In this document: positions 8,503-21,750 of the stretch, in pieces
Position numbering within the stretch: the stretch's first letter is position 1
How the letters are laid out: every line of letters begins with the position of its first letter
Origin: Chloroflexota bacterium
GTDB lineage: Bacteria > Chloroflexota > Limnocylindria > Limnocylindrales > CSP1-4
DNA: 64,000 nt
Direction: 5' to 3'
Assembly: GCA_040007635.1 (NCBI GenBank)
Contig: JBDTUR010000001.1
Location: forward strand, 9,205 to 73,204
Made by a program: the position numbers and the translations under genes
The notes under the pieces: generated by a model
What the model saw: the letters and a program-made list of their open reading frames with translations, nothing else
Databases searched by the model: none
Told to the model about the DNA's origin: nothing

Positions 8503-9678
8503 CTAGTTCAGCATCTGGATCGGCGTGATGGCATTTAGGAAGCCGTCTGCGTTGCGCGCCTCTAGCAGCGCCGGCTGCGGCGGGCCCAACGTCAGTTCTT
8601 TCGCCTCAGTGACGGCTTGAACGCCCATGAGGTGGTAGGCAGCAGTCAGGGCCTCGCCGAGGTGGGTGCCGAACTGTTCGAGGGCCGCCACGTGCTCGGG
8701 CTTCTTGGGCCGCTCGACGCGGAATGACATGTGAGTGCCCGTGCCCGTTGGCTCGAGCTCGAACATCATCACCAGCTTGAACGGGATCAAAGGGTTGGTC
8801 GAACGCATGGTGATGTAGTCGTTCGGGCGGTAATCGAGGATCTCCTCGATCACCATCGCCTCGCCGTGCGCGCAATGGGTGACGGTCCCGGCGCCGCGTC
8901 GGCCGCCGTCGCCGGGCTGCTGCTCGATGCCCGTGGTGCCTGTCAGGCCCTGCCAACCAAGGCGTCTTCCGGGCGTCGTCAGGAAGTCCCAAACGACCTG
9001 CGGCGGTGCGTTGATCTGGAGCTCCATGTTGAACGCGGCGTCGGCTGGGCTGAAGTAGACGCGCTGCCGCGACTCCTCTTCCTGCCAGCGCTTTTCCAGG
9101 TCGAGCACCCAGATCGGCACTTCGCCAACGTGCTCGTACGCTTGGGAGTGGTGCGTCATCCCAAGCGCCGCCGGGTCAATACCGACCGCGCTGGTGAGCG
9201 TCGCAGTCAACGCCGCGTACGCAGGAACGCCAAGCGTCTCGACGATGTCGTTCTTCAACAGTCGATGGAGGACGATCACGTCTGAGCCAAGCAGCTCCTC
9301 GTGGCCCGCAACCTTCTGGCGGATGACGACGCCCCGGTGCGCGACGAACTTGAGGTTGAGCGTGGGAATCCGCATGCACGCGTTGCACTCGCACGAGGTG
9401 GCCGCGCGGACATCACGCCGACGGCGGCGGAAGCTGAAGTAGCAGCGCTCGATGGTGTCGAGCAGCGTCGAGCCATCGACTTTGTCAGCCGGCGCGAAGC
9501 AGAAGGCCGCGTCACCTTCAAGCTTGGCCAGCCGAAACGCCGGCCGCAGGCTCGTCACGACCGTGCCGATGAGGTCGGCGAGGATGTCCTGAGCGTGATC
9601 GATCTCGACCCCGGCCAGGTACTCGGTGTAGCCGGAGATGTCGGCGATTAGAAGAGTTACCTGCTCAAGCTGATTCAC
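8503..9678 (-). CDS. Fusion of a DUF2652-like (nucleotide-cyclase-like) N-terminal domain and an SRPBCC (polyketide-cyclase/START-like) C-terminal domain. An alternative start at 9744 would overlap the helicase gene.
   Basis: N-terminus LLIADISGYTEYL...CECNAC; the C-terminal half FNMELQINAPPQVVWDFLTTPGRRLGW is SRPBCC-like. The GTG at 9678 avoids the 26-nt overlap with the helicase gene. Confidence 0.5.
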   Translation of the reverse strand: MNQLEQVTLLIADISGYTEYLAGVEIDHAQDILADLIGTVVTSLRPAFRLAKLEGDAAFCFAPADKVDGSTLLDTIERCYFSFRRRRRDVRAATSCECNACMRIPTLNLKFVAHRGVVIRQKVAGHEELLGSDVIVLHRLLKNDIVETLGVPAYAALTATLTSAVGIDPAALGMTHHSQAYEHVGEVPIWVLDLEKRWQEEESRQRVYFSPADAAFNMELQINAPPQVVWDFLTTPGRRLGWQGLTGTTGIEQQPGDGGRRGAGTVTHCAHGEAMVIEEILDYRPNDYITMRSTNPLIPFKLVMMFELEPTGTGTHMSFRVERPKKPEHVAALEQFGTHLGEALTAAYHLMGVQAVTEAKELTLGPPQPALLEARNADGFLNAITPIQMLN

Positions 9679-9718
9679 GCTGATGGAATATTGCCACGCG
9701 GCGCTCCCGGCGCGCGAT

Positions 9719-12700
9719 CTAGGAAATGGCGCGCTCCGATCCAAACCGGCTGGGGCAGATCAGGCGGTAGTCACACCGCCCGCAGCGCCAGATGTCAGGC
9801 GTCGCGGTGAAATCACCGCCGCGAATGCGGCGCGCCTTTTCGATGAGCGACACACGGAACTCGTCGAGCTGTTGGGGTGTGCGCGTCGTCGACAGACTCA
9901 GGTCGTTTTCCGTGAAGTACAGCGTCAACTTGGTCGCGGCCGGCAAGGGTTGCTTTGTCTGGGGGTCAAGAACCGCGCCCATGGCCGTCGCGAGCGCGTA
10001 TGCGGAAAGCTGCTCGTCCTGATCGACCTCGGACTGCTTCTTCGACTTGCCGGTCTTGTAGTCGATGATCTCGATCGACCCGTCAGCATGGCGATCGATG
10101 CGGTCGATGATGCCGTACAGCAGCACCGGCGCCTCGCCATCGCCCGCCGGCAGCTCGAGCGTGAAGCCCTGTTCGAACCCGACCGCCTGAGCGATGTTCT
10201 TGACCTCGCGCTCATAGAAGCGACGTAGAGCCGGCTCCGCGCGCTTGGCGTAGTGCTCAGCCGCCTGCACGTCGGCATAGTTGCGCGGTTCCCAGGCCGC
10301 GTCGAAAGCCTGCTTCAGCTCTTCGTAGTCCGGCGGCGTGTCGCCTGCTGCGATCGCGTCGCGCCGCTTGCGCGCGTAAACCTCGAAGGCGCTATGGATC
10401 ACGTGGCCAAACTCAAAGTAGCCGGGCGTCGTGGCCACCGGTATGCGGTAGACCTTGTTGAACGCGTACTGGAGCGGGCAATCGCTGTACATGCGCAGCT
10501 GGCTGTGCGAGAAGGTCTGCGGCAGCGCCGTCATCTCGAGCAGTGTCTTGCCCGCTGGGGCGTGGCGCGACAGGACATTGAGCGTGATGGGGTCAAGCCC
10601 GTTGCGGCGCGCCTCGCTGGCCGCGCTGGCCGCCGCCTCAGCGACCTCCACTAGTTCCTGGGTGAGGCTGCGGCGGCCCTCAACGTCGTCCGGCGCCAGG
10701 CCCTCGAGCATGCCGATGATCTCGATCGCGCGGCGGCGTAGCGCGAAGCGGCGTTCGTGGGCGAGCGGCACGGGCATCAGCTTGAGCAGCTGGACTGTCG
10801 TCTCCGGCGTCGTCTCTAGCGCACCGCGACCCAGGTCGTCGACATCTGAAGTGGCCTTTTGGGCGCGTTGTTCGATGACGATGTCATCGGGCGTGGCCGG
10901 GCGCTCGTACTCATCCGATGAGACCGGCGCCAGCGTTGGGCCACCGCGCTCGATCTCCGCCACGAAACGGCTGGGCTGGATCTTGGAACCCGACGGCTGG
11001 AGGGCGCTGAGCAGCAACCGGCTCCGGGCGCGGGTCATCGCCACGAACAGCAAGCGTCGCTCTTCATCGATGGCGTAGTCCTCAGGCGGCTTCTGCTTGA
11101 GGAGCTCGATGGGCAACAGGCGCTGCTCATCGCGCGTGTCCGGGAACTGTTGCTCGACGAGCCGCGGGACGGCGACCGCCTCGTACTCGAGGCCCTTCGC
11201 CTGGTAGATCGTCATGAGCTGCACGCCTTCGACCTCAACGCGGCCCATCTGGTCGGATTCGATGTCGCCCCCAACCTGCTCGTACAGGTCGAGATAGGTG
11301 ACGAACTGGCCCAGGCTGTCGCGCGGATGAGCCGCTTGCCAGTCCGCCACGAAGCGCATCACACGAGCGAGGGCGAGCACGCTCCGCTGGGCGTCAGGCG
11401 TCTCAGCCGCGATCAGGTCGTGCAGCAGGTTGGTGCGGATCATGAAGTCCTCGAGCACGGCGAACGGCCCGTCGCGCTGCCCGCGCGGCACGAGGACATT
11501 GAGCAGGCTGAGCAGCCGCTCGAGCTTCACCCGAAGACGCGCGTCGAGCTGCTCACGGCGCCACACGGCGCGCTGCTCACGGCTACGGCGCTGGCGAACC
11601 GTCTCCGGCTCACGTTCGTCGAAATCGGCGTCGTTCCAGAGCGTCTGTCCAACCGCCGCGCGCAGGGGCGCGTCCTTGGCGAGTGCCGCTGTGGGCGGCT
11701 CGCTGACACTGATCTCGCCCTCGCGCAGGATGTCAGTCGCGGCCTGGTATACGGCACGCCCATCCCACGCGGCTGCATTGGCAACGCGCAGGATCTCTGC
11801 AGCGTCGAGCCGCCATGGGCCTGCCGACAACAGCCGGACGAACGACGCGTTGTCATCTGGGTTGGCGGCCACGCGTAGTGCCGCCACGACGTCGCGGACG
11901 TCGGGCACGTTGAAGAGGCCGGCGCCGCCCACGACGACGTACGGGATGTCCTGCTTGCGCAGCCGCTCAACGATCAGCTCGCGATGGCGGTGGCGCCGAT
12001 ACAGAACGGCGATGTCGCTCCAGCGGCGTGGGCTGGGCAGGCTCGCAAAGGTGTCCTTGATCCAACCGACGACCAGGTCCGCCTCATCCGCCTCGTCAGT
12101 GGCGTGGACTACCCGAACGGGATCGCCCGGTTCCTTGATGGGCGTCAGCGGACCGCTCTTGAGGCGTTTCTGGTTGCGCGCGATAAGGCGGCTCGCGGCG
12201 GAGAGGATGTGCCCTGTTGAGCGGCGGTTCTCGAGCAGCGGCTGGCTGATGACCTTCTGGGCCGGGCGGTCGGGATCCCATGTAGGCGCGAGCTCGAAGC
12301 GCTCCTCGAAACGGCTGAATGCCGCGTACGAAGCACCGCGGAAGCGATAGATGGACTGATCGTCATCGCCCACAACCACCACGTTGTCAGGCTTGTTCGG
12401 CCCACGCCCGACCAGCTCGAGCAGCAGGATCTGGGCCATGTTGGCGTCCTGGAATTCGTCCACAAGGACGTGGCGGAACTGGTCCTGGTAGCGGCGCAGG
12501 ATGTTGGGCCGCTCAGTCAGCAGTTGGATTGCCAGCGCCTGCTGCTCGCCGAAATCGAGCAGGCCGCGCTCACGCAGCGTGGCCTGATAGGTCGCGTAGG
12601 CCTCTGCTTCCTCCCGGACGCGGAGCACTTCGAGCGCCTCCGCGTCGCGGACGAACGTGGGCTGGAGGCCCCTCGCGAGGTTGAGCTGGTCGGGCGTCAT

Positions 12701-14310: not shown

Positions 14311-14407
14311 GAGGAAAGACTGAGGCCCTTCTTGGCCGCTACTTCGCTGCCAGCGAACAAACAGCCACGGGCTGAACAGGTTGGCGCGGACGGGGCTCCA
14401 AGCCGGG

Positions 14408-15206
14408 TCAGGAGGCGCGCGGCGCTACCGGGGCGTGGAACTGCTCGGCGCGGATGTTGGCCGCCGCGACGCCGGCCGCCAAAAGGACGCGCCGGCACGC
14501 CTCGATCATGTCCGGGTTGCCGCACAAGTACGCCGTCGAGTCGACAAGCGCGGGGTTGTCCAGAAGGAGTCGCTCAACCTGGGATTCGGCGCGGCCCACC
14601 GGGCCACTCCAACCTGAGTTGCGCCGCTCATGGGGCCGCGACACGGTCGGACGGTAGTCGATCGGCACGCCGCCAACCTGCCAGTCGCTGACGCGCGCCG
14701 CGTAGGCAAGCTCGGCGAACCACGAGACGCCATGGATCAGCACGTTGGGCGTGGTATCGCCGCGCGCGGACAAATCGTCGAGCATCGCCAGCAGCGGCGC
14801 CAGGCCTGTCCCGGTGCCGATCATTAGCCTGGGCCGCAGGTCAGCCGAATCCAGCACGAACAACCCACGGGCCGGCCCAACGTGCAGCCGCGCGCCCACG
14901 CGCAGCGCCCACAACATGTTTGAGAGTCGACCGTCGGGTAGGCGCCGGACAAACAGCTCGACCCGGGTCCCAGTTCGGTCGAGGGCGACGATCGAGTACG
15001 GCCGCTGAACCAACTTACCGTCGTGCTCGACGCCGAGCGACACGTACTGGCCGGGCTTGTACGCCCCGAGCGGCACATCGAGCACAAGGGCGAAGACGCC
15101 CAGCGTGCCCGTGACCTCGACGCGCGAGGCGAGCGTCGCGTTGGCAAGCACGGGATGCTGCCTGGATGCGACGCTGCGAGCCGGCAGCGAACGAAGCATG
15201 GTCATG
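14408..15206 (-). CDS. Ferredoxin-NADP+ reductase-type FAD/NAD(P)-binding oxidoreductase
   Basis: RPYSIV (FAD-binding RxYS motif) and GTGLAPLLAML (NAD(P)-binding). The ATG at 15206 overlaps the ferredoxin TGA (ATGA). Confidence 0.8.
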
Positions 15207-15498
15207 CCGCCGCTCCCGACAGCACCTCGGCCAGGACATCGCGCGCGGCACCCGCATCCCGGAACCAGGCCGCATCGATCCAGGCGTAGTCGGCCCACTT
15301 GGCGGGCAGGTCGGCCAAGGGATAGATCGCGTTGTTGGGACATACGGACAAGCACGAGCCGCACTCGATGCAGCCGTCGGGATCGATGTGGAACTTCCGA
15401 TCAATGCCCTCGACCGACGAGATGCAGTCGACCGGGCAGACCGCGACGCACGACTGATCCATGTGGTCGACGCACGGCTCGGCGATTACATAGGTCAT
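15202..15498 (-). CDS. 7Fe-type ferredoxin ([3Fe-4S][4Fe-4S], FdxA-like)
   Basis: MTYVIAEPCVDHMDQSCVAVCPVDCI...CIECGSCLSVCP, two Cys clusters; 98 aa. It lies inside a longer annotated ORF. Confidence 0.85.
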   Translation of the reverse strand: MTYVIAEPCVDHMDQSCVAVCPVDCISSVEGIDRKFHIDPDGCIECGSCLSVCPNNAIYPLADLPAKWADYAWIDAAWFRDAGAARDVLAEVLSGAAA

Positions 15499-16214
15499 GG
15501 CTGGAACTCCTGTGCTACGGGTACGGGTGCCTTGACGCGCGCTGCGGGACGAACCCCGCTGGCGAGGCTCAAAGTGATGCGGTAGACGAGCAGGAAGGCC
15601 ACGGCGACGGTGGCGATGGTGTAGGCCCAGAAAGCCCAGGCGGCGGGTGAGTCGGTGCCCGACATCAGGCCGTGTGCGGTCGCACCCACAAAGGCCAACA
15701 GCGTCGTGTAGTGGAGCAGTCGCCAGGCGCGCTGGCCAATCCGCCGGCGCACGCTGAACGACGCGTACACCGCGATCATCAGGTAGAAGGTGACCTGGCC
15801 GATGCCCACCCATTCAGGCCGGTACGGGCCGGCGAACGGGATGATCAGTTGGCGCACGGTCTGGGGCACGAAGGTGTCGAGCGCCAGCACGGCACCGTGC
15901 AACGCGGTCAGACCGATGGCGACCGCAGACAGATCCTGGTGCAGCGTGAAGGACACCACCCGGTGGGCGATCCGGTCGAGGATGCCAGTCGACAGCAGCA
16001 GCCCGTAGACCACTGATATGGCCAGCGCCCCGTACGCGAGGAAGCCCAGGACGCGCGTCGTGTACCAGGAGAGGCTGTCCTGATGCGCTGTCACCCAGTC
16101 AACGGCCAGGCCGGTGGCTGTGGGCGCGGTCGCGTAAAGGACCATCGTGACCGCGAGGCCGAACAACCCCCAGCGCAGCAGCCGCGTGCGCGGGCTCAGT
16201 CCTTGGTACTTCAT
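15495..16214 (-). CDS. Ferric-reductase-like transmembrane domain protein (di-heme b, MsrQ/FRD-type) without a fused FAD/NAD domain
   Basis: About six TM helices with conserved His in adjacent helices (HQDL...HGAVLALD; HYTTLLAFVGATAHGL). The ATG at 16214 overlaps the ApbE stop (ATGA). Confidence 0.65.
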   Translation of the reverse strand: MKYQGLSPRTRLLRWGLFGLAVTMVLYATAPTATGLAVDWVTAHQDSLSWYTTRVLGFLAYGALAISVVYGLLLSTGILDRIAHRVVSFTLHQDLSAVAIGLTALHGAVLALDTFVPQTVRQLIIPFAGPYRPEWVGIGQVTFYLMIAVYASFSVRRRIGQRAWRLLHYTTLLAFVGATAHGLMSGTDSPAAWAFWAYTIATVAVAFLLVYRITLSLASGVRPAARVKAPVPVAQEFQP

Positions 16215-17164
16215 GCCAGCCACGCCTCGACGCCGGGCAGGCTGACCACGCTGTTGTCCTCGAGCAGCAGGATCGCGGCCAGGGCGGCCGATCGAGCCAG
16301 AAAACCCAGCGCTTCGTGCGAGCCCAGGATGACGGCCGACTTGGCGATCATCTCCGCCTCACGCGCGCTAGGCGCGATCACAGTCGCCTGGACGACATCG
16401 GTTTGCGCCGGCTGACGGGTGCGCCGATCGATGAGATGGTGAGTCAGCCGACCATCCGCCAACTGCCAGTGATGGACGCTTGTGCCGGACGTCGCGACGC
16501 CGTAGCTCGCGGTCCACGAAGTGCCACCGCGCAACTTGAGCGTGGCAAGCGGTGGCGGCTCGACGCCTTCCGCCGCGAGTCGCGGATCCGCAATATCGAC
16601 CAGCCACTCGACGCCGCGGTCGGCGCGCAGGGCGATGTCGCCATCGGCGTCGACAACCACTCCCGGCCAGTGCGCCAGCAGGTCTGCCGCGCGGTCCGCG
16701 ATCCAACCTTTGGCCGTGCCATCGAGGTCGATGCGCACTCCTGGATCGCGCTCGACGATCGAGTCGCGCGCGGTGCCCAGTAGCTGCCACGTCCAACCAT
16801 TGGGTGTGGGCGAAGGCTCGAGGGCGGTCGCTGACTCGGCCGCGAGCCGCGCGTCGAGCAAGGTCGAGTCCACGACCCCGTCGGTGCGCTGCTGGGCCGT
16901 TTTGGCCCAGTGCAGCGCGGCGGCGAGTGTGGGCCTGACCGAAACGCGCGACTCGGCGGCCGAGTTCAGGTAGGAGAGATGGGATGCGTCGTTGAAGCGC
17001 GTCAGGCGCGCGGCCCAGGTCTCGACGCGCTGCACGGTGCGTCGCGCATCGATCTGTGCCTGCACAATGCGCTCGGGCTCCGCGGTGATGAAGACGCTGA
17101 GCGTCCCGCCCATCGACGGCGTTGAATGGGCCACGGTCTGGTAGTCGATTGCGTGCTCGTTCAT
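16211..17164 (-). CDS. apbE: FAD:protein FMN transferase (ApbE family flavin transferase)
   Basis: 317 aa of ApbE-like sequence, e.g. HSTPSMGGTLSV. Its start overlaps the stop of the upstream B2 gene (ATGA). Confidence 0.8.
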   Translation of the reverse strand: MNEHAIDYQTVAHSTPSMGGTLSVFITAEPERIVQAQIDARRTVQRVETWAARLTRFNDASHLSYLNSAAESRVSVRPTLAAALHWAKTAQQRTDGVVDSTLLDARLAAESATALEPSPTPNGWTWQLLGTARDSIVERDPGVRIDLDGTAKGWIADRAADLLAHWPGVVVDADGDIALRADRGVEWLVDIADPRLAAEGVEPPPLATLKLRGGTSWTASYGVATSGTSVHHWQLADGRLTHHLIDRRTRQPAQTDVVQATVIAPSAREAEMIAKSAVILGSHEALGFLARSAALAAILLLEDNSVVSLPGVEAWLA

Positions 17165-17745
17165 GGCCGCTTGCCTGACTGACGCGTGACAGGTTTGGGC
17201 GCGGCAGGGCGCGCCGCGGGCTGTGCTGCTTGGCCGCTGGGAGCGTTATGCGTAACGACGATCCGTGGCGTGGGGGCATTGGCGGCGATGACCTTCGCGC
17301 CTGGTGGCGCCGTCTCCCCGGGCTTGAGCTGGATGTACTGGGTCACATGCTGGACCGTCGTGGCGGGCACCTGTGCGACGGCATTGGGTTCAGCCGTAGG
17401 GTCGGATGCGCCGCTTTGGTCGGCGGTGGCGGCGAAGTCTGGCTGCACGAGTCCGACAGCCATGACACTCATCGCCGCCACCGCCCCGGCGCCGTAGACG
17501 AAGCGCATCGGCCGCGCATCGGGCTTGGACTGGCGGGAGTCCGTGCGCGCTGGTCGAGCGTCAGAAGGAGGGCGGGCCGCTGGGGCCGGCTGGGCTGAGC
17601 GCGCCATCTCGGCGGCCACCTCTCGCGCCAGGGCCATGATCATGTCGCGCGACACGCCGTCGGGCAGCTGCATGTCTGCAGGTTGCGCGGGCATGTTGCG
17701 TGCTGGCCGCGGCGGCAGCGGGGGGAGCGGACGATTGACTGGCAT
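17161..17745 (-). CDS. Pro/Ala-rich single-pass membrane protein, module B copy 2 (paralog of 18209-18934)
   Basis: Shared core MRFVYGAGAVAAMSVMAVGLVQPDF and YIQLKPGETAPPGAKVIAANAPTPRIV with its paralog. An SGAS motif follows the TM helix. The ATG shares the A of the A2 gene's TGA stop (TGATG, 1-nt overlap). Confidence 0.55.
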   Translation of the reverse strand: MPVNRPLPPLPPRPARNMPAQPADMQLPDGVSRDMIMALAREVAAEMARSAQPAPAARPPSDARPARTDSRQSKPDARPMRFVYGAGAVAAMSVMAVGLVQPDFAATADQSGASDPTAEPNAVAQVPATTVQHVTQYIQLKPGETAPPGAKVIAANAPTPRIVVTHNAPSGQAAQPAARPAAPKPVTRQSGKRP

Positions 17746-18080
17746 CAGTCGCCGCCTCGCTCGCCGCGATCGCCGCGATCGCCACGCTCGCCGTCACCTT
17801 GGCTGCGGGGCCGGCTGACTGTCGGCGCCGGCGTGGTGTTGTGGCGCGGCTTGTTGACGTGAACCACTGCCGGCTGCGGCGTGGGCTCGACGTAAACCTT
17901 GTCGATGACCGTCTTGGTCGTGTCAGGCGCTGCGGCCGCAGTCTGGTCACTGGCGGGTGTTGCGGCTGAGGTGTGAGCTGCCGTCGGCGCGGCAGAGAAG
18001 AGCCCACCCAGGTTCATTGCCAGGGCAAGGACGGCTGCCGCGCCGACACCACCGAGAAAGATTGCGAGCCGGTGAACCAT
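17745..18080 (-). CDS. Small signal-anchored protein with a collagen-like GDR/GER acidic tail, module A copy 2 (paralog of 18934-19422)
   Basis: Starts MVHRLAIFLGGVGAAAVLALA and has a GGAGG RBS 10 nt upstream of the ATG at 18080. The longer listed ORF (to 18155) has no RBS. Confidence 0.5.
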   Translation of the reverse strand: MVHRLAIFLGGVGAAAVLALAMNLGGLFSAAPTAAHTSAATPASDQTAAAAPDTTKTVIDKVYVEPTPQPAVVHVNKPRHNTTPAPTVSRPRSQGDGERGDRGDRGERGGD

Positions 18081-18208
18081 TTGCTTCGAGCCTCCGTTGT
18101 GCTTATCTGCTTCGGAGTCTGTCAGCGCGTTCTGTGGCCTCCATTTGCGACGCATTGGAGTTCGCTCACGCGGCGCAAGGCAGGCCCAGGGAGGACCCCG
18201 GGCAGGCC

Positions 18209-18934
18209 TTAGGGATGACCCGATTGACGCGTGGTGGGCTTGGGCGTGGGGCGAGGTGTGGGGCGCGGAGTCGCGGCTGGGCCCTGGGTGGGCCGGGGCG
18301 TGGTACTCACGCCACCGCCATTACCGCCGCCGCCATTTCCGCCGCCAGCGTTGCCGCCACCGCTGTGGGGCCGCGGCGTTGCCGTTGGGTCGGGGTTCGA
18401 TTGGTGGTTGCGCACGATGCGCGGCGGTGGCGCGCTCGCTGATATGACTGTCGCCCCGGGCGGTGCCGTCTGGCCGGGCTTGAGATAGACGTAGCGGATC
18501 ACGTGACGCACCTTGCCGCCGCGCCCACCCCCGCTGGTGCCGGTGGCATCGGGTTGGGCAGCGTCGGTGCCATCAGGCAGGAGCGCGATCGCACCCGGAT
18601 CGTCTGTTGGGTTGAAGCTTTCATCGGTTGGGCCCGGATCGGCGGTCGAGGTCCAGTCGGGTTGCACGAGGCCCACGGCCATGATGCTCATTGCCGCAAC
18701 CGCGCCTGCGCCGTAGACCACGCGCATTGGCCGTGGATCGGGCCGATTGGCGGGACGGCGTGCGGGCCCCCCAGCGCTGCCGGCGGTGGCCGGACGATGC
18801 TCGATCCCCGCGCGTGGCCGCGAGGCGCGCGGGACGTCAGCCGCGACCGCCTCCGCCTCTTCGCCGCGCCGTGGCGGCAGCGGCCGGCCAGACGTCGCCG
18901 ATCTTCGCCCGGAATCAGGCTCTTGAGCGGCCAT
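18209..18934 (-). CDS. Pro/Ala/Gly-rich single-pass membrane protein, module B copy 1
   Basis: About 45% identity over the core with 17161-17745 (MRVVYGAGAVAAMSIMAVGLVQPDW; YVYLKPGQTAPPGATVISASAPPPRIV). Confidence 0.55.
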   Translation of the reverse strand: MAAQEPDSGRRSATSGRPLPPRRGEEAEAVAADVPRASRPRAGIEHRPATAGSAGGPARRPANRPDPRPMRVVYGAGAVAAMSIMAVGLVQPDWTSTADPGPTDESFNPTDDPGAIALLPDGTDAAQPDATGTSGGGRGGKVRHVIRYVYLKPGQTAPPGATVISASAPPPRIVRNHQSNPDPTATPRPHSGGGNAGGGNGGGGNGGGVSTTPRPTQGPAATPRPTPRPTPKPTTRQSGHP

Positions 18935-19422
18935 CAGTCGTCGCCCGGCTCATGGCCGCCATCGTCGGACCCGCCATCGTGGGACCCGCCGTCGTGGGAC
19001 CCGCCGTCGTCCGAGTGCTCGCCGCCATCATGCTCGTCCTCGCCCCCGGCCTGGCCGTCATCACCGCCCACGTTGCCACCGCCGCCGTTGCGCGTCGGGC
19101 GGGGCGTGTCACTGGGCTGGTTGCCTTTGTCGCCTGCGGGCTTGTCGGTACGCACGACCACCGGCTTGCTCGGCGGCAGGACATAGATCGTGTCGACCTT
19201 CTTGACGGACGGCGCGGCCTGGTCCGTGCCCAGATCGGTCACCAGGGCCAGGGGATCAGTGGGCGCAACCTGCGCCAGCTGATCGGCGCCGGTTACATCA
19301 TTCGCGACAGGCACGAACGCGTCTGGAGTGGTTGGCGGCGCTGACCCATTCAGTGTCAGCGCCAGGGCGAGAACACCGGCCGCGCCGGCGCCGCCCATCA
19401 GCAATGCAAGTCGGTGAACCAC
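18934..19422 (-). CDS. Small signal-anchored protein with a Gly/Asp/His-rich tail (DGGSHDGGSHDGG), module A copy 1
   Basis: GTG start with a GGAGGAG RBS. N-terminus MVHRLALLMGGAGAAGVLALA and motif KKVDTIYVLPPSKPVVVRTDKP are shared with copy 2. Its TGA stop shares one nucleotide with the ATG of the next gene (TGATG). Confidence 0.55.
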   Translation of the reverse strand: MVHRLALLMGGAGAAGVLALALTLNGSAPPTTPDAFVPVANDVTGADQLAQVAPTDPLALVTDLGTDQAAPSVKKVDTIYVLPPSKPVVVRTDKPAGDKGNQPSDTPRPTRNGGGGNVGGDDGQAGGEDEHDGGEHSDDGGSHDGGSHDGGSDDGGHEPGDD

Positions 19423-19527: not shown

Positions 19528-19556
19528 CCTTGCGCAGCGCGGCTGGCGATGCCTAT

Positions 19557-20243
19557 ATGGAAGCCATGAAGCGAGTCCTGCTCGTCGAAGACCAAGAGCG
19601 CATGGCCGACGCCGTGCGGCGCGTGCTCGTGGCTGAGCGCTACACGGTTGACGTCGCCGCCGACGGCGAGACCGCGCTCGAACTGAGCCGGCAGCACAGC
19701 TACGACGTCGTGCTGCTGGATCGAATGCTGCCGGGGATCAGCGGCGAGCAGGTGCTGCGCACCATGCGCCGGCGCGGCAACTCGACGCCCGTGCTCATGG
19801 TCACGGCCCTTTCCGCACTCGACCACCGCGTCGAGGGACTGGACGCCGGCGCCGACGACTATTTGCCCAAGCCCTTCGCGTTCAGCGAGCTGCTCGCACG
19901 CCTGCGCGCCCTCACCCGTCGCAGCCCAGAACTCGTGGCCGAGCGGCTTGCGGCGGGCACGATCGAGCTCGATCCAGATCGCCACCAGGTGACAGTGGGC
20001 GAGCGGAGCGAGCTGCTGTCGGCGCGCGAATACGCACTGCTGGGCTATCTCATACGCCACGCCGGCCAGGTGGTGACGCGCCAGCAGATCCTCGACTCGG
20101 TCTGGGGCGCGGAGCCTGACGTGTATTCGAACGTCGTCGACCTGTACATCCATTACCTGCGGCGCAAGCTGGGCGCGCTGGGCCAGAACAAGGCGTTACG
20201 CACCGTGCGCGGAGTCGGTTATGCGCTTCAACCGGGCGGCTAA
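19557..20243 (+). CDS. OmpR-family two-component response regulator
   Basis: Receiver domain (VLLVEDQ...D...LLDRMLPG...PVLMVTA...K) plus a winged-helix trans_reg_C domain (GYALQ terminus). Confidence 0.9.
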   Translation: MEAMKRVLLVEDQERMADAVRRVLVAERYTVDVAADGETALELSRQHSYDVVLLDRMLPGISGEQVLRTMRRRGNSTPVLMVTALSALDHRVEGLDAGADDYLPKPFAFSELLARLRALTRRSPELVAERLAAGTIELDPDRHQVTVGERSELLSAREYALLGYLIRHAGQVVTRQQILDSVWGAEPDVYSNVVDLYIHYLRRKLGALGQNKALRTVRGVGYALQPGG

Positions 20244-21750
20244 ACCACTCGTTACGGCGGTGACGCCATCGGACCGCCTGGTCCGACGAACATCGCGCGG
20301 CCTGGCCTTCGTCACGCTCGCATTGATCGCCGCTCTGCTGGCCGGGGTGGGCCTGGTCACGGCGGCGGTCGCGATTGGCATGACCAACGAGAACATCGAC
20401 CGCACGTTGGAGCAAGCCGCTTCCGTCCGACTGGGCGAGATCGAGACACTGCTCCAGCAGGAGACCGACCAAGAGGGACAACCGAGTCAGACGTCCAGTC
20501 CCGAAAACGAAAACGGATCTGAAGATGGCGCGACCTCCCAAGAAGGCGAAGGCGTACCGGGCGCGACGTCGGAAGTGACGCCGGTGCCCACCCCTGCCCC
20601 GACGGCCACACCCATGCCGTCCGGCCTTGGTCTGGTTGATAGCGACGAAGCGCAGCTCGAATCCTTCCAGACCTTCTACCTGGTGCTCGACACCAACGGC
20701 AACGTGCTCTCCAATCCGCAGCAGATCAGGCTCGCCGGACTGCCCGACGCCGCCGCGGCGGAAGCAGCAAGGCGCGGTGACGATCTGCGCACGGTGACCG
20801 TGGGCGGCATCCATATCCGCCTGCTCACCCGGCGCGTCATGAACACGAGGAGCGAGGTTGTCGCTCTGCTCCAGACCGGGTTCCTGCTGACGCAGCACGA
20901 CCAGCAAACGAACACGATCCTGATCACGATCGCACTGGTCAGCCTGATCGGACTGCTGGGTGCCGCGGTGGTGACGCTGGTGGTCACGACGCGCGCCATG
21001 GGACCAATTCGCTCAGCCTTCAATGCTGAGCGACGCTTCGTCGCGTCGGCGTCGCACGAGCTACGGACACCCGTCGCCGTCGTCCGCGCATCGGCCGAAA
21101 TACTGCAGCGCGAAGGCCTGGTACAGCCCGACGGCCAACGCCTCGTCGCGGACATCGTGTCCGAATCTGACCGGCTGGGGCGGCTGGTGGGCGACCTGCT
21201 GGCGCTCGCATCCGCCGATGCCGGCGCAATCGTGGTGAAACCAGAGGAGATCGAGATGCGCGGCTTCGTCGCCGAACTGGCGCGGCGCGCGGAGGCGATC
21301 GCGACCGAGCGCGGTGTCAAGCTGGAGCTCGTCCAGGAGCGCGCGTCCGGGGCCGATCGCGCTCTCCTCGTGCGCGCCGATCCCGACCGCATGACCCAGC
21401 TGTTGCTGATCTTCATCGACAACGCGATCGACCACTCCCCGGCCGGCGGCACGATCCGCCTGTCTGTGGCGCCACTCAACGAGGGTCGCCAGCCGCAGAT
21501 CTGCGTGGGCGTCGCGGACCAGGGGCCGGGCGTGCCAATGCACGAGCGACTGCGCATCTTCGAGCCATTCGCGCGCCTCGCCGGCCGGCGCCGCGAGACG
21601 GGCAATACCGGCCTGGGCCTGGCCATCGCCCGCGTCCTCGCCGCGCGTCAGGACGCGACGCTCCACGTTGACGACGCCACCGGCGGCGGCGCGGTGTTCA
21701 GTGTCTGGCTGCCGCGCCGGAGCGCTACCGGAGCCGCGGCCAACAACTGA
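20221..21750 (+). CDS. Sensor histidine kinase (two TM segments, periplasmic sensor with an acidic Pro/Thr low-complexity insert, HisKA + HATPase_c)
   Basis: H-box SASHELRTPVAVV, N/G boxes, C-terminal GGAVFSVWLP. Overlaps the regulator gene by 23 nt. Confidence 0.9.
   Translation: MRFNRAAKPLVTAVTPSDRLVRRTSRGLAFVTLALIAALLAGVGLVTAAVAIGMTNENIDRTLEQAASVRLGEIETLLQQETDQEGQPSQTSSPENENGSEDGATSQEGEGVPGATSEVTPVPTPAPTATPMPSGLGLVDSDEAQLESFQTFYLVLDTNGNVLSNPQQIRLAGLPDAAAAEAARRGDDLRTVTVGGIHIRLLTRRVMNTRSEVVALLQTGFLLTQHDQQTNTILITIALVSLIGLLGAAVVTLVVTTRAMGPIRSAFNAERRFVASASHELRTPVAVVRASAEILQREGLVQPDGQRLVADIVSESDRLGRLVGDLLALASADAGAIVVKPEEIEMRGFVAELARRAEAIATERGVKLELVQERASGADRALLVRADPDRMTQLLLIFIDNAIDHSPAGGTIRLSVAPLNEGRQPQICVGVADQGPGVPMHERLRIFEPFARLAGRRRETGNTGLGLAIARVLAARQDATLHVDDATGGGAVFSVWLPRRSATGAAANN

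Follow-up and report, generated by a model that had tools for sequence, protein, structure and literature searches.

The 64,000-nucleotide (nt) stretch of the Limnocylindria (Chloroflexota) contig JBDTUR010000001.1 analyzed here, referred to as the window below, carries on its minus strand two consecutive copies of a two-gene module, A–B, whose products are predicted single-pass membrane proteins of no annotated family, and a conserved operon of about eight genes begins with this module and continues with genes for an ApbE-family protein and a ferric-reductase-like membrane protein. A first-pass annotation, made by a model from the letters of the window, had described the tandem duplication, and the four minus-strand open reading frames (ORFs) are indeed found where it placed them, together with the motifs it quoted, the MVHRLA anchor of A, the transmembrane (TM) segment of B and the low-complexity tails. 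Its description and interpretation were essentially right, albeit incomplete, as both the operon of ~eight genes and the T-x-x-S-G motif of B had been missed. In the direction of transcription, the module is organized as follows:

18934-19422, minus strand: A1, 162 amino acid residues (aa), with a GTG start and a GAGGAGGAG ribosome-binding site before it; a predicted single-pass membrane protein made up of MVHRLA and a Gly/Ala-rich TM segment, the core KKVDTIYVLPPSKPVVVRTDKP and an expanded acidic Asp/Gly/His tail.
18209-18934, minus strand: B1, 241 aa; a predicted single-pass membrane protein made up of a Pro/Arg-rich N-region, NRPDPRPMR and a TM segment, the core VRHVIRYVYLKPGQTAPPGATVI, GGN and PRPT repeats and the C-terminal TTRQSGHP.
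18081-18208, minus strand: the B1–A2 intergenic spacer, which holds the ribosome-binding site of A2.
17745-18080, minus strand: A2, a paralog of A1, 111 aa counted from MVHRLA, with an ATG start and GGAGG 10 nt upstream; core VIDKVYVEPTPQPAVVHVNKP and a mixed-charge tail GDGERGDRGDRGERGGD.
17161-17745, minus strand: B2, a paralog of B1, 194 aa, made up of the N-terminal MPVNRPLPPLPPRP and an amphipathic helix, KPDARPMR and a TM segment, the core VQHVTQYIQLKPGETAPPGAKVI and the C-terminal VTRQSGKRP.

A1 and A2 are 36% identical according to BLASTP (E 3e-7) and 44% identical over 107 codons when aligned globally, the corresponding values for B1 and B2 being 53% over the 118 aa of the TM segment and core (E 5e-34) and 54% over 171 codons, of which the previously given ~45% identity between the copies is a fair average; such likeness far exceeds what chance would give. 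At the A/B junction of both copies the stop and start codons share a single base (GAC TGA TG), and the same TGATG overlap was seen in every junction read, those of distant relatives included, which agrees with the translational link between A and B that had been proposed earlier. Only at the B1–A2 spacer do neighboring genes of the operon not overlap; an imperfect 23-nt direct repeat (1.9 copies, 18179-18221) spans the B1 stop and this spacer. The window belongs to a metagenome-assembled Chloroflexota genome (locus tags ABI725_00135, ABI725_00145 and ABI725_00150), and the NCBI record for B1 represents a shorter, 172-aa product, the longer start being favored by the upstream KPD.RP motif, which is conserved at the protein level, and by the retention of the long N-region in L001, the closest relative among the loci compared below.

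Tandem DNA repeats, all in frame, are located in the A1 tail (15 nt, 3.7 copies, 18956-19011), the A2 tail (9 nt, 4.6 copies, 17753-17793) and B1 (15 nt, 3.3 copies, 18310-18358), and this coincidence of the low-complexity tails with in-frame repeats of 9 and 15 nt suggests that the tails grow and shrink by repeat slippage. The likeness of the A2 tail to collagen, which the first-pass annotation had pointed out, is superficial, as it consists of four G-X-Y (G-[DE]-R) triplets produced by the 9-nt slippage repeat, and the L001 ortholog reads GEREPGDGGERGGD instead.

That the four ORFs might be non-functional reading frames of the kind that easily arise in high-GC DNA has a certain appeal, given a GC content of ~69% here, the existence of many overlapping spurious ORFs and the low-complexity composition of A and B. 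The conservation data, however, refute it and leave it with practically no probability. Homologs with conserved cores and termini exist in dozens of genomes, a word-index search having returned 167 for B and 99 for A (i.e., about a hundred or more per family), and an exhaustive hidden Markov model (HMM) search of 1.84 billion proteins having yielded 213 cluster representatives for B; ribosome-binding sites precede A1 and A2; the start/stop overlaps are conserved; and the ratios of nonsynonymous to synonymous substitution rates (dN/dS), measured against L001, are 0.38 for A1, 0.23 for B1, 0.28 for A2 and 0.33 for B2. All four genes are thus under purifying selection, as the suggestion that the copies are maintained by selection had it. 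The same suggestion held the duplication to be an old one, which is borne out as well: in a distance tree, B1 and B2 fall in separate clades, and since each of these holds orthologs from other, related genomes, the duplication is, judging by the tree, older than the species that carry them. The complete A1-B1-A2-B2 arrangement is also present in L001, and the A–B duplications of other clades look independent.

The homologs themselves are mostly named “hypothetical protein”, a few bearing unrelated automatic names, and none of the 167 B and 99 A homologs has a precomputed Pfam domain. No family was hit at E ≤ 1 by A1, B1 or B2 in a scan of Pfam and NCBIfam, where A2 returned noise only, and profile searches against all PDB sequences gave no matches for B and only noise for A. 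As far as these searches reach, A and B appear to be unannotated families limited to Limnocylindria-type Chloroflexota; in the library searched, no paper names Limnocylindria together with ApbE, and none on this operon was found. A common origin of A and B was considered and is not assignable, as a profile–profile comparison aligns only the Arg-plus-TM segment (probability 75%), despite the “YV” and “QTAPP” strings that the two families share.

In the family alignment, A begins with M-x-S-I-H-R or MVHR and a Gly/Ala-rich hydrophobic helix, continues through an Ala/Thr/Gln-rich linker of variable length into a core of one or two proline-flanked strand-like motifs, (E)TIYVNPxPTPxVIxVTQTAPP and PPVIHVVVP, and ends in a Gly/Asp tail of the GGDDGG[GS]DD type. 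B has a variable Pro/Arg-rich N-terminal region, KPDARPMR with a Gly/Ala-rich helix, a linker, the core V-x-[HR]-x-I-x-Y-V-x-L-x-P-G-Q-T-A-P-P-G-A-x-V-I...AP-x-P, and a basic C-terminus, [KR]-T-x-Q-S-G-[KHR]-(VV)P. The T, S and G of its T-x-x-S-G are invariant in 18 sequences, and in a set of 67 sequences S and G are again invariant, with T and Q each kept in at least 90%; since B1 and B2 use different codons for Q-S-G, the motif is, on this evidence, conserved at the level of the protein. The charges of the two tails are complementary, the last 15 residues having a net charge of −2 to −12 in A (acidic in 92 of 92 members) and always of +1 to +5 in B. The acidic tail of A1, for which metal binding had been suggested as a possibility, is not particular to A1: its DGGSH repeats are an expansion of the family-wide feature, and the GDR/GER tail of A2 is the least acidic one seen in the A family. 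Cys is almost absent from both families.

Basic residues precede the Gly/Ala-rich hydrophobic segment in A and B alike, and because of this charge distribution both proteins are predicted to have their N-terminus inside and their C-terminal part outside. AlphaFold2 (AF2) monomer models built from the family alignments give A2 a TM helix at residues 2-24 and an extended core at 61-90 (predicted local distance difference test score, pLDDT, ~80), and B2 a helix at 33-51, a TM helix at 80-99 and an extended core at 131-160 (pLDDT 74-85); neither model shows a globular fold, and the conserved cores (pLDDT 74-85) have no secondary structure, which we read as the usual behavior of a segment that needs a partner in order to fold.

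Downstream of B2 on the same strand, and divergently upstream of A1, lie the following genes:

16211-17164, minus strand: an ApbE-family protein (homolog of the flavin adenine dinucleotide (FAD):protein flavin mononucleotide (FMN) transferase), Pfam PF02424, E 1.6e-38.
15495-16223, minus strand: a ferric-reductase-like (MsrQ/YedZ-like) six-TM protein, 242 aa, with M4 at 16214 as the probable start.
15202-15498, minus strand: an FdxA-type ferredoxin, Pfam Fer4 and NCBIfam FdxA_Actino, E 1.6e-26.
14408-15205, minus strand: an FNR-like FAD/NAD(P)H oxidoreductase, Pfam FAD_binding_6 and NAD_binding_1.
19530-20243, plus strand: an OmpR-family response regulator, divergent from the operon.
20221-21750, plus strand: a sensor histidine kinase, likewise divergent and beside the response regulator (the pair spanning 19530-21750).

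The chain of overlaps extends through the redox genes: the maximal ORF of ApbE begins at the B2 stop, the junction being an ATGA overlap, the ApbE and ferric-reductase-like ORFs overlap by 13 nt as called, the ferredoxin start overlaps the ferric-reductase-like stop as ATGA, and the likely start of the FNR-like gene at 15205 forms an ATGA overlap with the ferredoxin stop (its longest ORF reaches 15364). Two terminator-like hairpins on the minus strand (14314-14374), 35-95 nt past the FNR-like stop, would fit the end of the operon, their count being not above the level in shuffled sequence. The window's ferric-reductase-like protein matches PF01794 below the gathering score (E 1e-4); many of its relatives have precomputed PF01794 matches and names such as “predicted ferric reductase/YedZ”. 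Thirty orthologs retain the two His pairs of the protein (H95/H109 and H171/H184), the spacing of the four residues being that expected for two b hemes. As for the two-component system, the response regulator comes closest, in NCBIfam, to RppA (231 bits against a cut-off of 250) and to heavy-metal response regulators without reaching any of their cut-offs, and the predicted outside loop of the kinase holds an acidic Ser/Glu/Gly/Pro/Thr-rich low-complexity stretch (ETDQEGQPSQTSSPENENGSEDGATSQEGEG...), echoing the outside regions of A and B.

The conservation of this neighborhood was followed through 33 related loci besides the window, 32 of which stem from a one-genome-per-species scan and one (L033) from a contig look-up; all are records of Chloroflexota metagenome-assembled genomes (MAGs), many of them named Limnocylindria or Limnocylindrales, and several of the Limnocylindria MAGs with A–B loci come from fen and peat-bog samples. 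An ApbE homolog lies downstream of B in 29 of the 33, which makes the neighborhood of the module and apbE, about which the first-pass annotation had asked, a consistent one; the ferric-reductase-like gene is present in 28 of these 29, and ApbE, the ferric-reductase-like gene, an OmpR-type response regulator and a histidine kinase occur together in 26 of the 33. An FdxA-type ferredoxin usually follows the ferric-reductase-like gene, an FNR-like gene was found in about ten loci, and for 29 of the 32 loci of the scan an A gene was recovered beside B. Most loci have a single A–B pair, two or three being present in L001, L009, L010, L011, L018 and L021, and the extra pairs of the latter five remain inside the same cluster. 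A second set of genes in L018 comprises A–B, a ferric-reductase-like gene, a ferredoxin and an FNR-like gene, without ApbE. In the window's clade the two-component genes lie upstream of the operon and diverge from it; the other clades have them downstream and in the same direction.

The ApbE homolog deserves a closer look, as neither the window protein nor the relatives read have a signal peptide, lipobox or TM segment, because of which it should be cytoplasmic. In addition, the segment TDADALAT of Treponema pallidum Ftp, which presumably holds the Mg-binding Asp and Thr, corresponds to REAEMIAK in the window protein, and at least 90% of 28 orthologs share this Glu and Lys (“AE..AK”); going by these replacements, the enzyme is possibly altered in its mechanism. 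The canonical flavinylation motif of ApbE substrates is D-x-x-[S/T]-G-A-[S/T] (PMC12052999); a six-frame regular-expression scan of the 64-kb window found no D-x-x-[ST]-G-A-[ST], none is conserved in the 32 loci, and a Pfam/NCBIfam scan gave no FMN_bind (PF04205) match in A, B or the cluster.

Several candidate sites were considered and rejected. Many single-copy loci have K, R, A, Q, V, I or S instead of the Thr of PPGAT in B, and because of these many replacements it is no essential modification site. The string “PGA[TA]SGG” at the C-terminus of the ferric-reductase-like proteins of distant loci was set aside, as it adjoins or overlaps the ferredoxin start, where, judging from the protein level, it may encode the ferredoxin ribosome-binding site, and it is missing from the window protein. 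The N-x-G-W-[ST]-G-A-T-G-R of the FNR-like proteins of L018, L009, L010 and L021 is not conserved either (NSGWSGPVGR at about residue 250 in the window); only the FNR-like protein of L021 (~6330) matches the canonical D-x-x-T-G-A-T exactly, which is probably coincidental, if notable beside a cytoplasmic ApbE.

Among known systems, the closest ones to compare with are the MsrQ-like flavinylation clusters, in which apbE is accompanied by a PF01794 protein and by an FMN-binding protein that is secreted or anchored (Meheust et al. 2021, eLife, PMC8238504). The operon resembles these in having apbE beside a PF01794 di-heme membrane protein with two His pairs and an NAD(P)H-binding module, as well as in the small membrane-anchored proteins encoded next to apbE. 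It differs in that the window operon has neither an FMN_bind gene nor the D-x-x-[ST]-G-A-[ST] motif; there is no signal peptide or lipobox in its ApbE; the NAD(P)H module, fused in the known clusters, is split here into an FdxA ferredoxin and a separate FNR-like protein; the unannotated A and B stand in place of the FMN-binding protein; and the taxon is Limnocylindria (Chloroflexota) instead of Actinobacteria. A secreted or lipidated ApbE or FMN-binding protein, i.e., the operational criterion of Meheust et al., is thus what the operon lacks, and as that survey (PMC8238504) retained a cluster only when one of four target genes was predicted to encode a signal peptide or lipidation site, this cluster type may, judging from the criterion, have been filtered out of it. 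Compared with membrane-anchored FMN-binding domain proteins of the NqrC, RnfG and PplA type, A and B share the N-terminal anchor, the predicted outward C-terminal part and the position beside apbE, and differ in having no Pfam match, predicted globular fold or flavinylation motif, the ~35 conserved residues of B contrasting with ~120 for FMN-bind1.

Looser analogies can be drawn to p22phox, the small eukaryotic partner of NOX2 in cytochrome b558, whose proline-rich tail is cytosolic, and to TonB-type proteins, which have a short cytoplasmic N-terminus, a single TM segment and a long, proline-rich, extended segment outside. With p22phox, A and B would have in common the role of a small proline-rich membrane partner of a heme protein of the ferric-reductase superfamily, the partnership being hypothesized for A/B and there being no sequence relationship. 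With the TonB type they share the predicted topology, i.e., the short cytoplasmic N-terminus, the single TM segment and the proline-rich extended outside part, although they have no TonB C-terminal domain, their motifs are unrelated, and no ExbB/ExbD genes were found in the conserved cluster at the loci read.

The operon can be classed with the known MsrQ-like/ApbE type as a variant that has a split ferredoxin/FNR donor, a signal-less ApbE, and A and B in place of the FMN-binding protein. The reading we prefer, and hold tentatively, with doubt slightly outweighing belief, is that A and B are paired outer-face subunits of a ferredoxin-fed electron-transfer system in which they replace that protein. 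Made together through translational coupling, A and B would pair via their Gly/Ala-rich TM helices and the extended, proline-flanked conserved segments, and as a pair they would make up the accessory module on the outer side of a transmembrane reductase in Limnocylindria, taking the operon position of the membrane-anchored FMN-binding protein of known MsrQ-like clusters. Electrons would pass from NAD(P)H through the FNR-like flavoprotein and the FdxA ferredoxin to the two hemes of the ferric-reductase-like protein, an ApbE-family protein presumably being present on the cytoplasmic side as well. The acidic Gly/Asp(/His) tail of A would capture a cationic substrate, e.g., Fe(III) or Cu(II), or pair with the basic tail of B, and the two copies, having diverged mainly in their tails by short in-frame repeat slippage, would supply two versions of the outer module.

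That A pairs with B, and probably with the reductase, is argued for by the strict A-then-B order, the TM segments rich in small residues, the extended segments and the complementary tail charges. For a cationic substrate, the acidic A tail is most plausibly the binding site, and a metal is weakly hinted at, since the membrane protein belongs to the ferric-reductase family and the nearest named relatives of the regulator, sub-cut-off as they are, are RppA and heavy-metal regulators. Topology, the pairing of A with B, their link to the reductase and metal binding of any kind are, for all that, what we infer, and several points speak against the arrangement just outlined. Any function given to A and B rests on gene order and sequence features; the AF2 models are of monomers only, which keeps the pairing putative; and metal binding by A is equally putative, the conserved His of the A core being not invariant and replaced by Arg in the window's own A1. 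An ApbE without an export signal is hard to reconcile with A/B parts that are conserved and predicted to be outside, and the two-component system is equally conserved beside A–B, as would suit a sensory role. Finally, L027 has an orphan A–B pair (9660-10444) with no redox genes behind it.

The link to ApbE would be direct if B (or A) were a non-canonical ApbE substrate, bearing FMN on the invariant Thr/Ser of T-x-Q-S-G and acting as a minimal “flavin-tagged” electron carrier in lieu of an FMN-binding protein. The B stop does overlap the ApbE start, B standing directly before ApbE in the same 29 of 33 loci, neither the cluster nor the rest of the 64-kb window encodes a canonical substrate, the invariant T-x-x-S-G is at the extreme C-terminus, and ApbE can modify short terminal peptide tags (PMC12052999); the altered metal-site motif of the window's ApbE might, moreover, change its specificity. 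The motif, however, misfits D-x-x-[ST]-G-A-[ST], as T-x-Q-S-G has no S/T at the modified position behind S-G, the PPGAT Thr is no better (replaced, as said, in many single-copy loci), and the ApbE has no signal peptide, whereas the C-terminus of B is predicted to be outside and would be threaded out while being made, to which the ApbE-free second set of L018 may be added. We consider such a modification very unlikely.

A sensory role would make A and B accessory sensors or modulators of the adjacent OmpR-type two-component system, i.e., small partners of the kinase and not reductase subunits. Small single-pass accessory proteins beside kinases are common, the regulator and kinase adjoin in 26 of 33 loci, and the B proteins of the window's clade have a conserved cytoplasmic amphipathic helix; nevertheless, it is ApbE and the reductase genes, not the regulator or kinase, to which A/B are translationally chained, the position and orientation of the two-component system vary by clade against a fixed A-B-ApbE order, and the extra A–B copies come without extra kinases, all of which makes this role unlikely. 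What remains is an envelope or cell-wall spacer, or structural proline-rich rods, unrelated to electron transfer and merely sharing the promoter. The Pro/Thr/Ala-rich extended regions with no globular fold, the linkers of variable length, the repeat-driven tails and the orphan pair of L027 would all suit such proteins, but a tight, class-wide coupling to the same redox genes via overlapping stop/start codons would not, and that selection keeps such short cores and terminal motifs speaks for specific binding partners instead; we regard mere spacers as very unlikely. Regarding the L027 pair itself, the reading frame of its B shifts by one base immediately ahead of the C-terminal motif (IIARTTQSGTVIP in the +1 frame), due to either pseudogenization or an assembly error, and a methyltransferase-like ORF lies on the opposite strand.

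Returning to A and B as paired outer subunits of the reductase, a bolder version can be formulated: a new outward-facing module in which two largely unstructured tethered partners with complementary acidic and basic tails replace the flavinylated protein at the exit of a ferredoxin-driven NOX/FRE-like reductase, where they would offer a metal cation to the outer heme or bear a cofactor attached in a non-canonical way, the signal-less ApbE (Glu/Lys versus the Asp/Thr of Ftp) having a repurposed cytoplasmic role. Taken as a whole, this is rather unlikely to be correct. The A–B operon is well supported as a conserved uncharacterized system; a new mechanism is not yet demonstrated.

The system is of wider relevance because ApbE-associated transmembrane electron-transfer systems have so far been catalogued mostly via recognizable FMN-binding substrates and a secreted ApbE, whereas this operon keeps ApbE and the ferric-reductase-like cytochrome without a recognizable flavinylation substrate, with an apparently cytoplasmic ApbE and with two unannotated single-pass proteins instead. 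Should A and B be outer subunits, they would constitute a new way of accomplishing the final step of electron export, or of metal reduction/uptake, in Limnocylindria, a class represented here by MAGs only, and two new protein families would gain a testable role; the operon would also be a natural case for asking: what does an ApbE homolog do with no canonical target nearby?

The ferric-reductase-like protein shows some variation of its own. A homolog search with it gave only close Limnocylindria relatives among the 120 matches listed, and in a distant clade the protein has a proline-rich, low-complexity N-terminal extension of ~130-280 aa (L006, 4773-5849; L009, 15700-17034; L012, 10877-12391; L017, 11356-12591) that is missing from the window protein.

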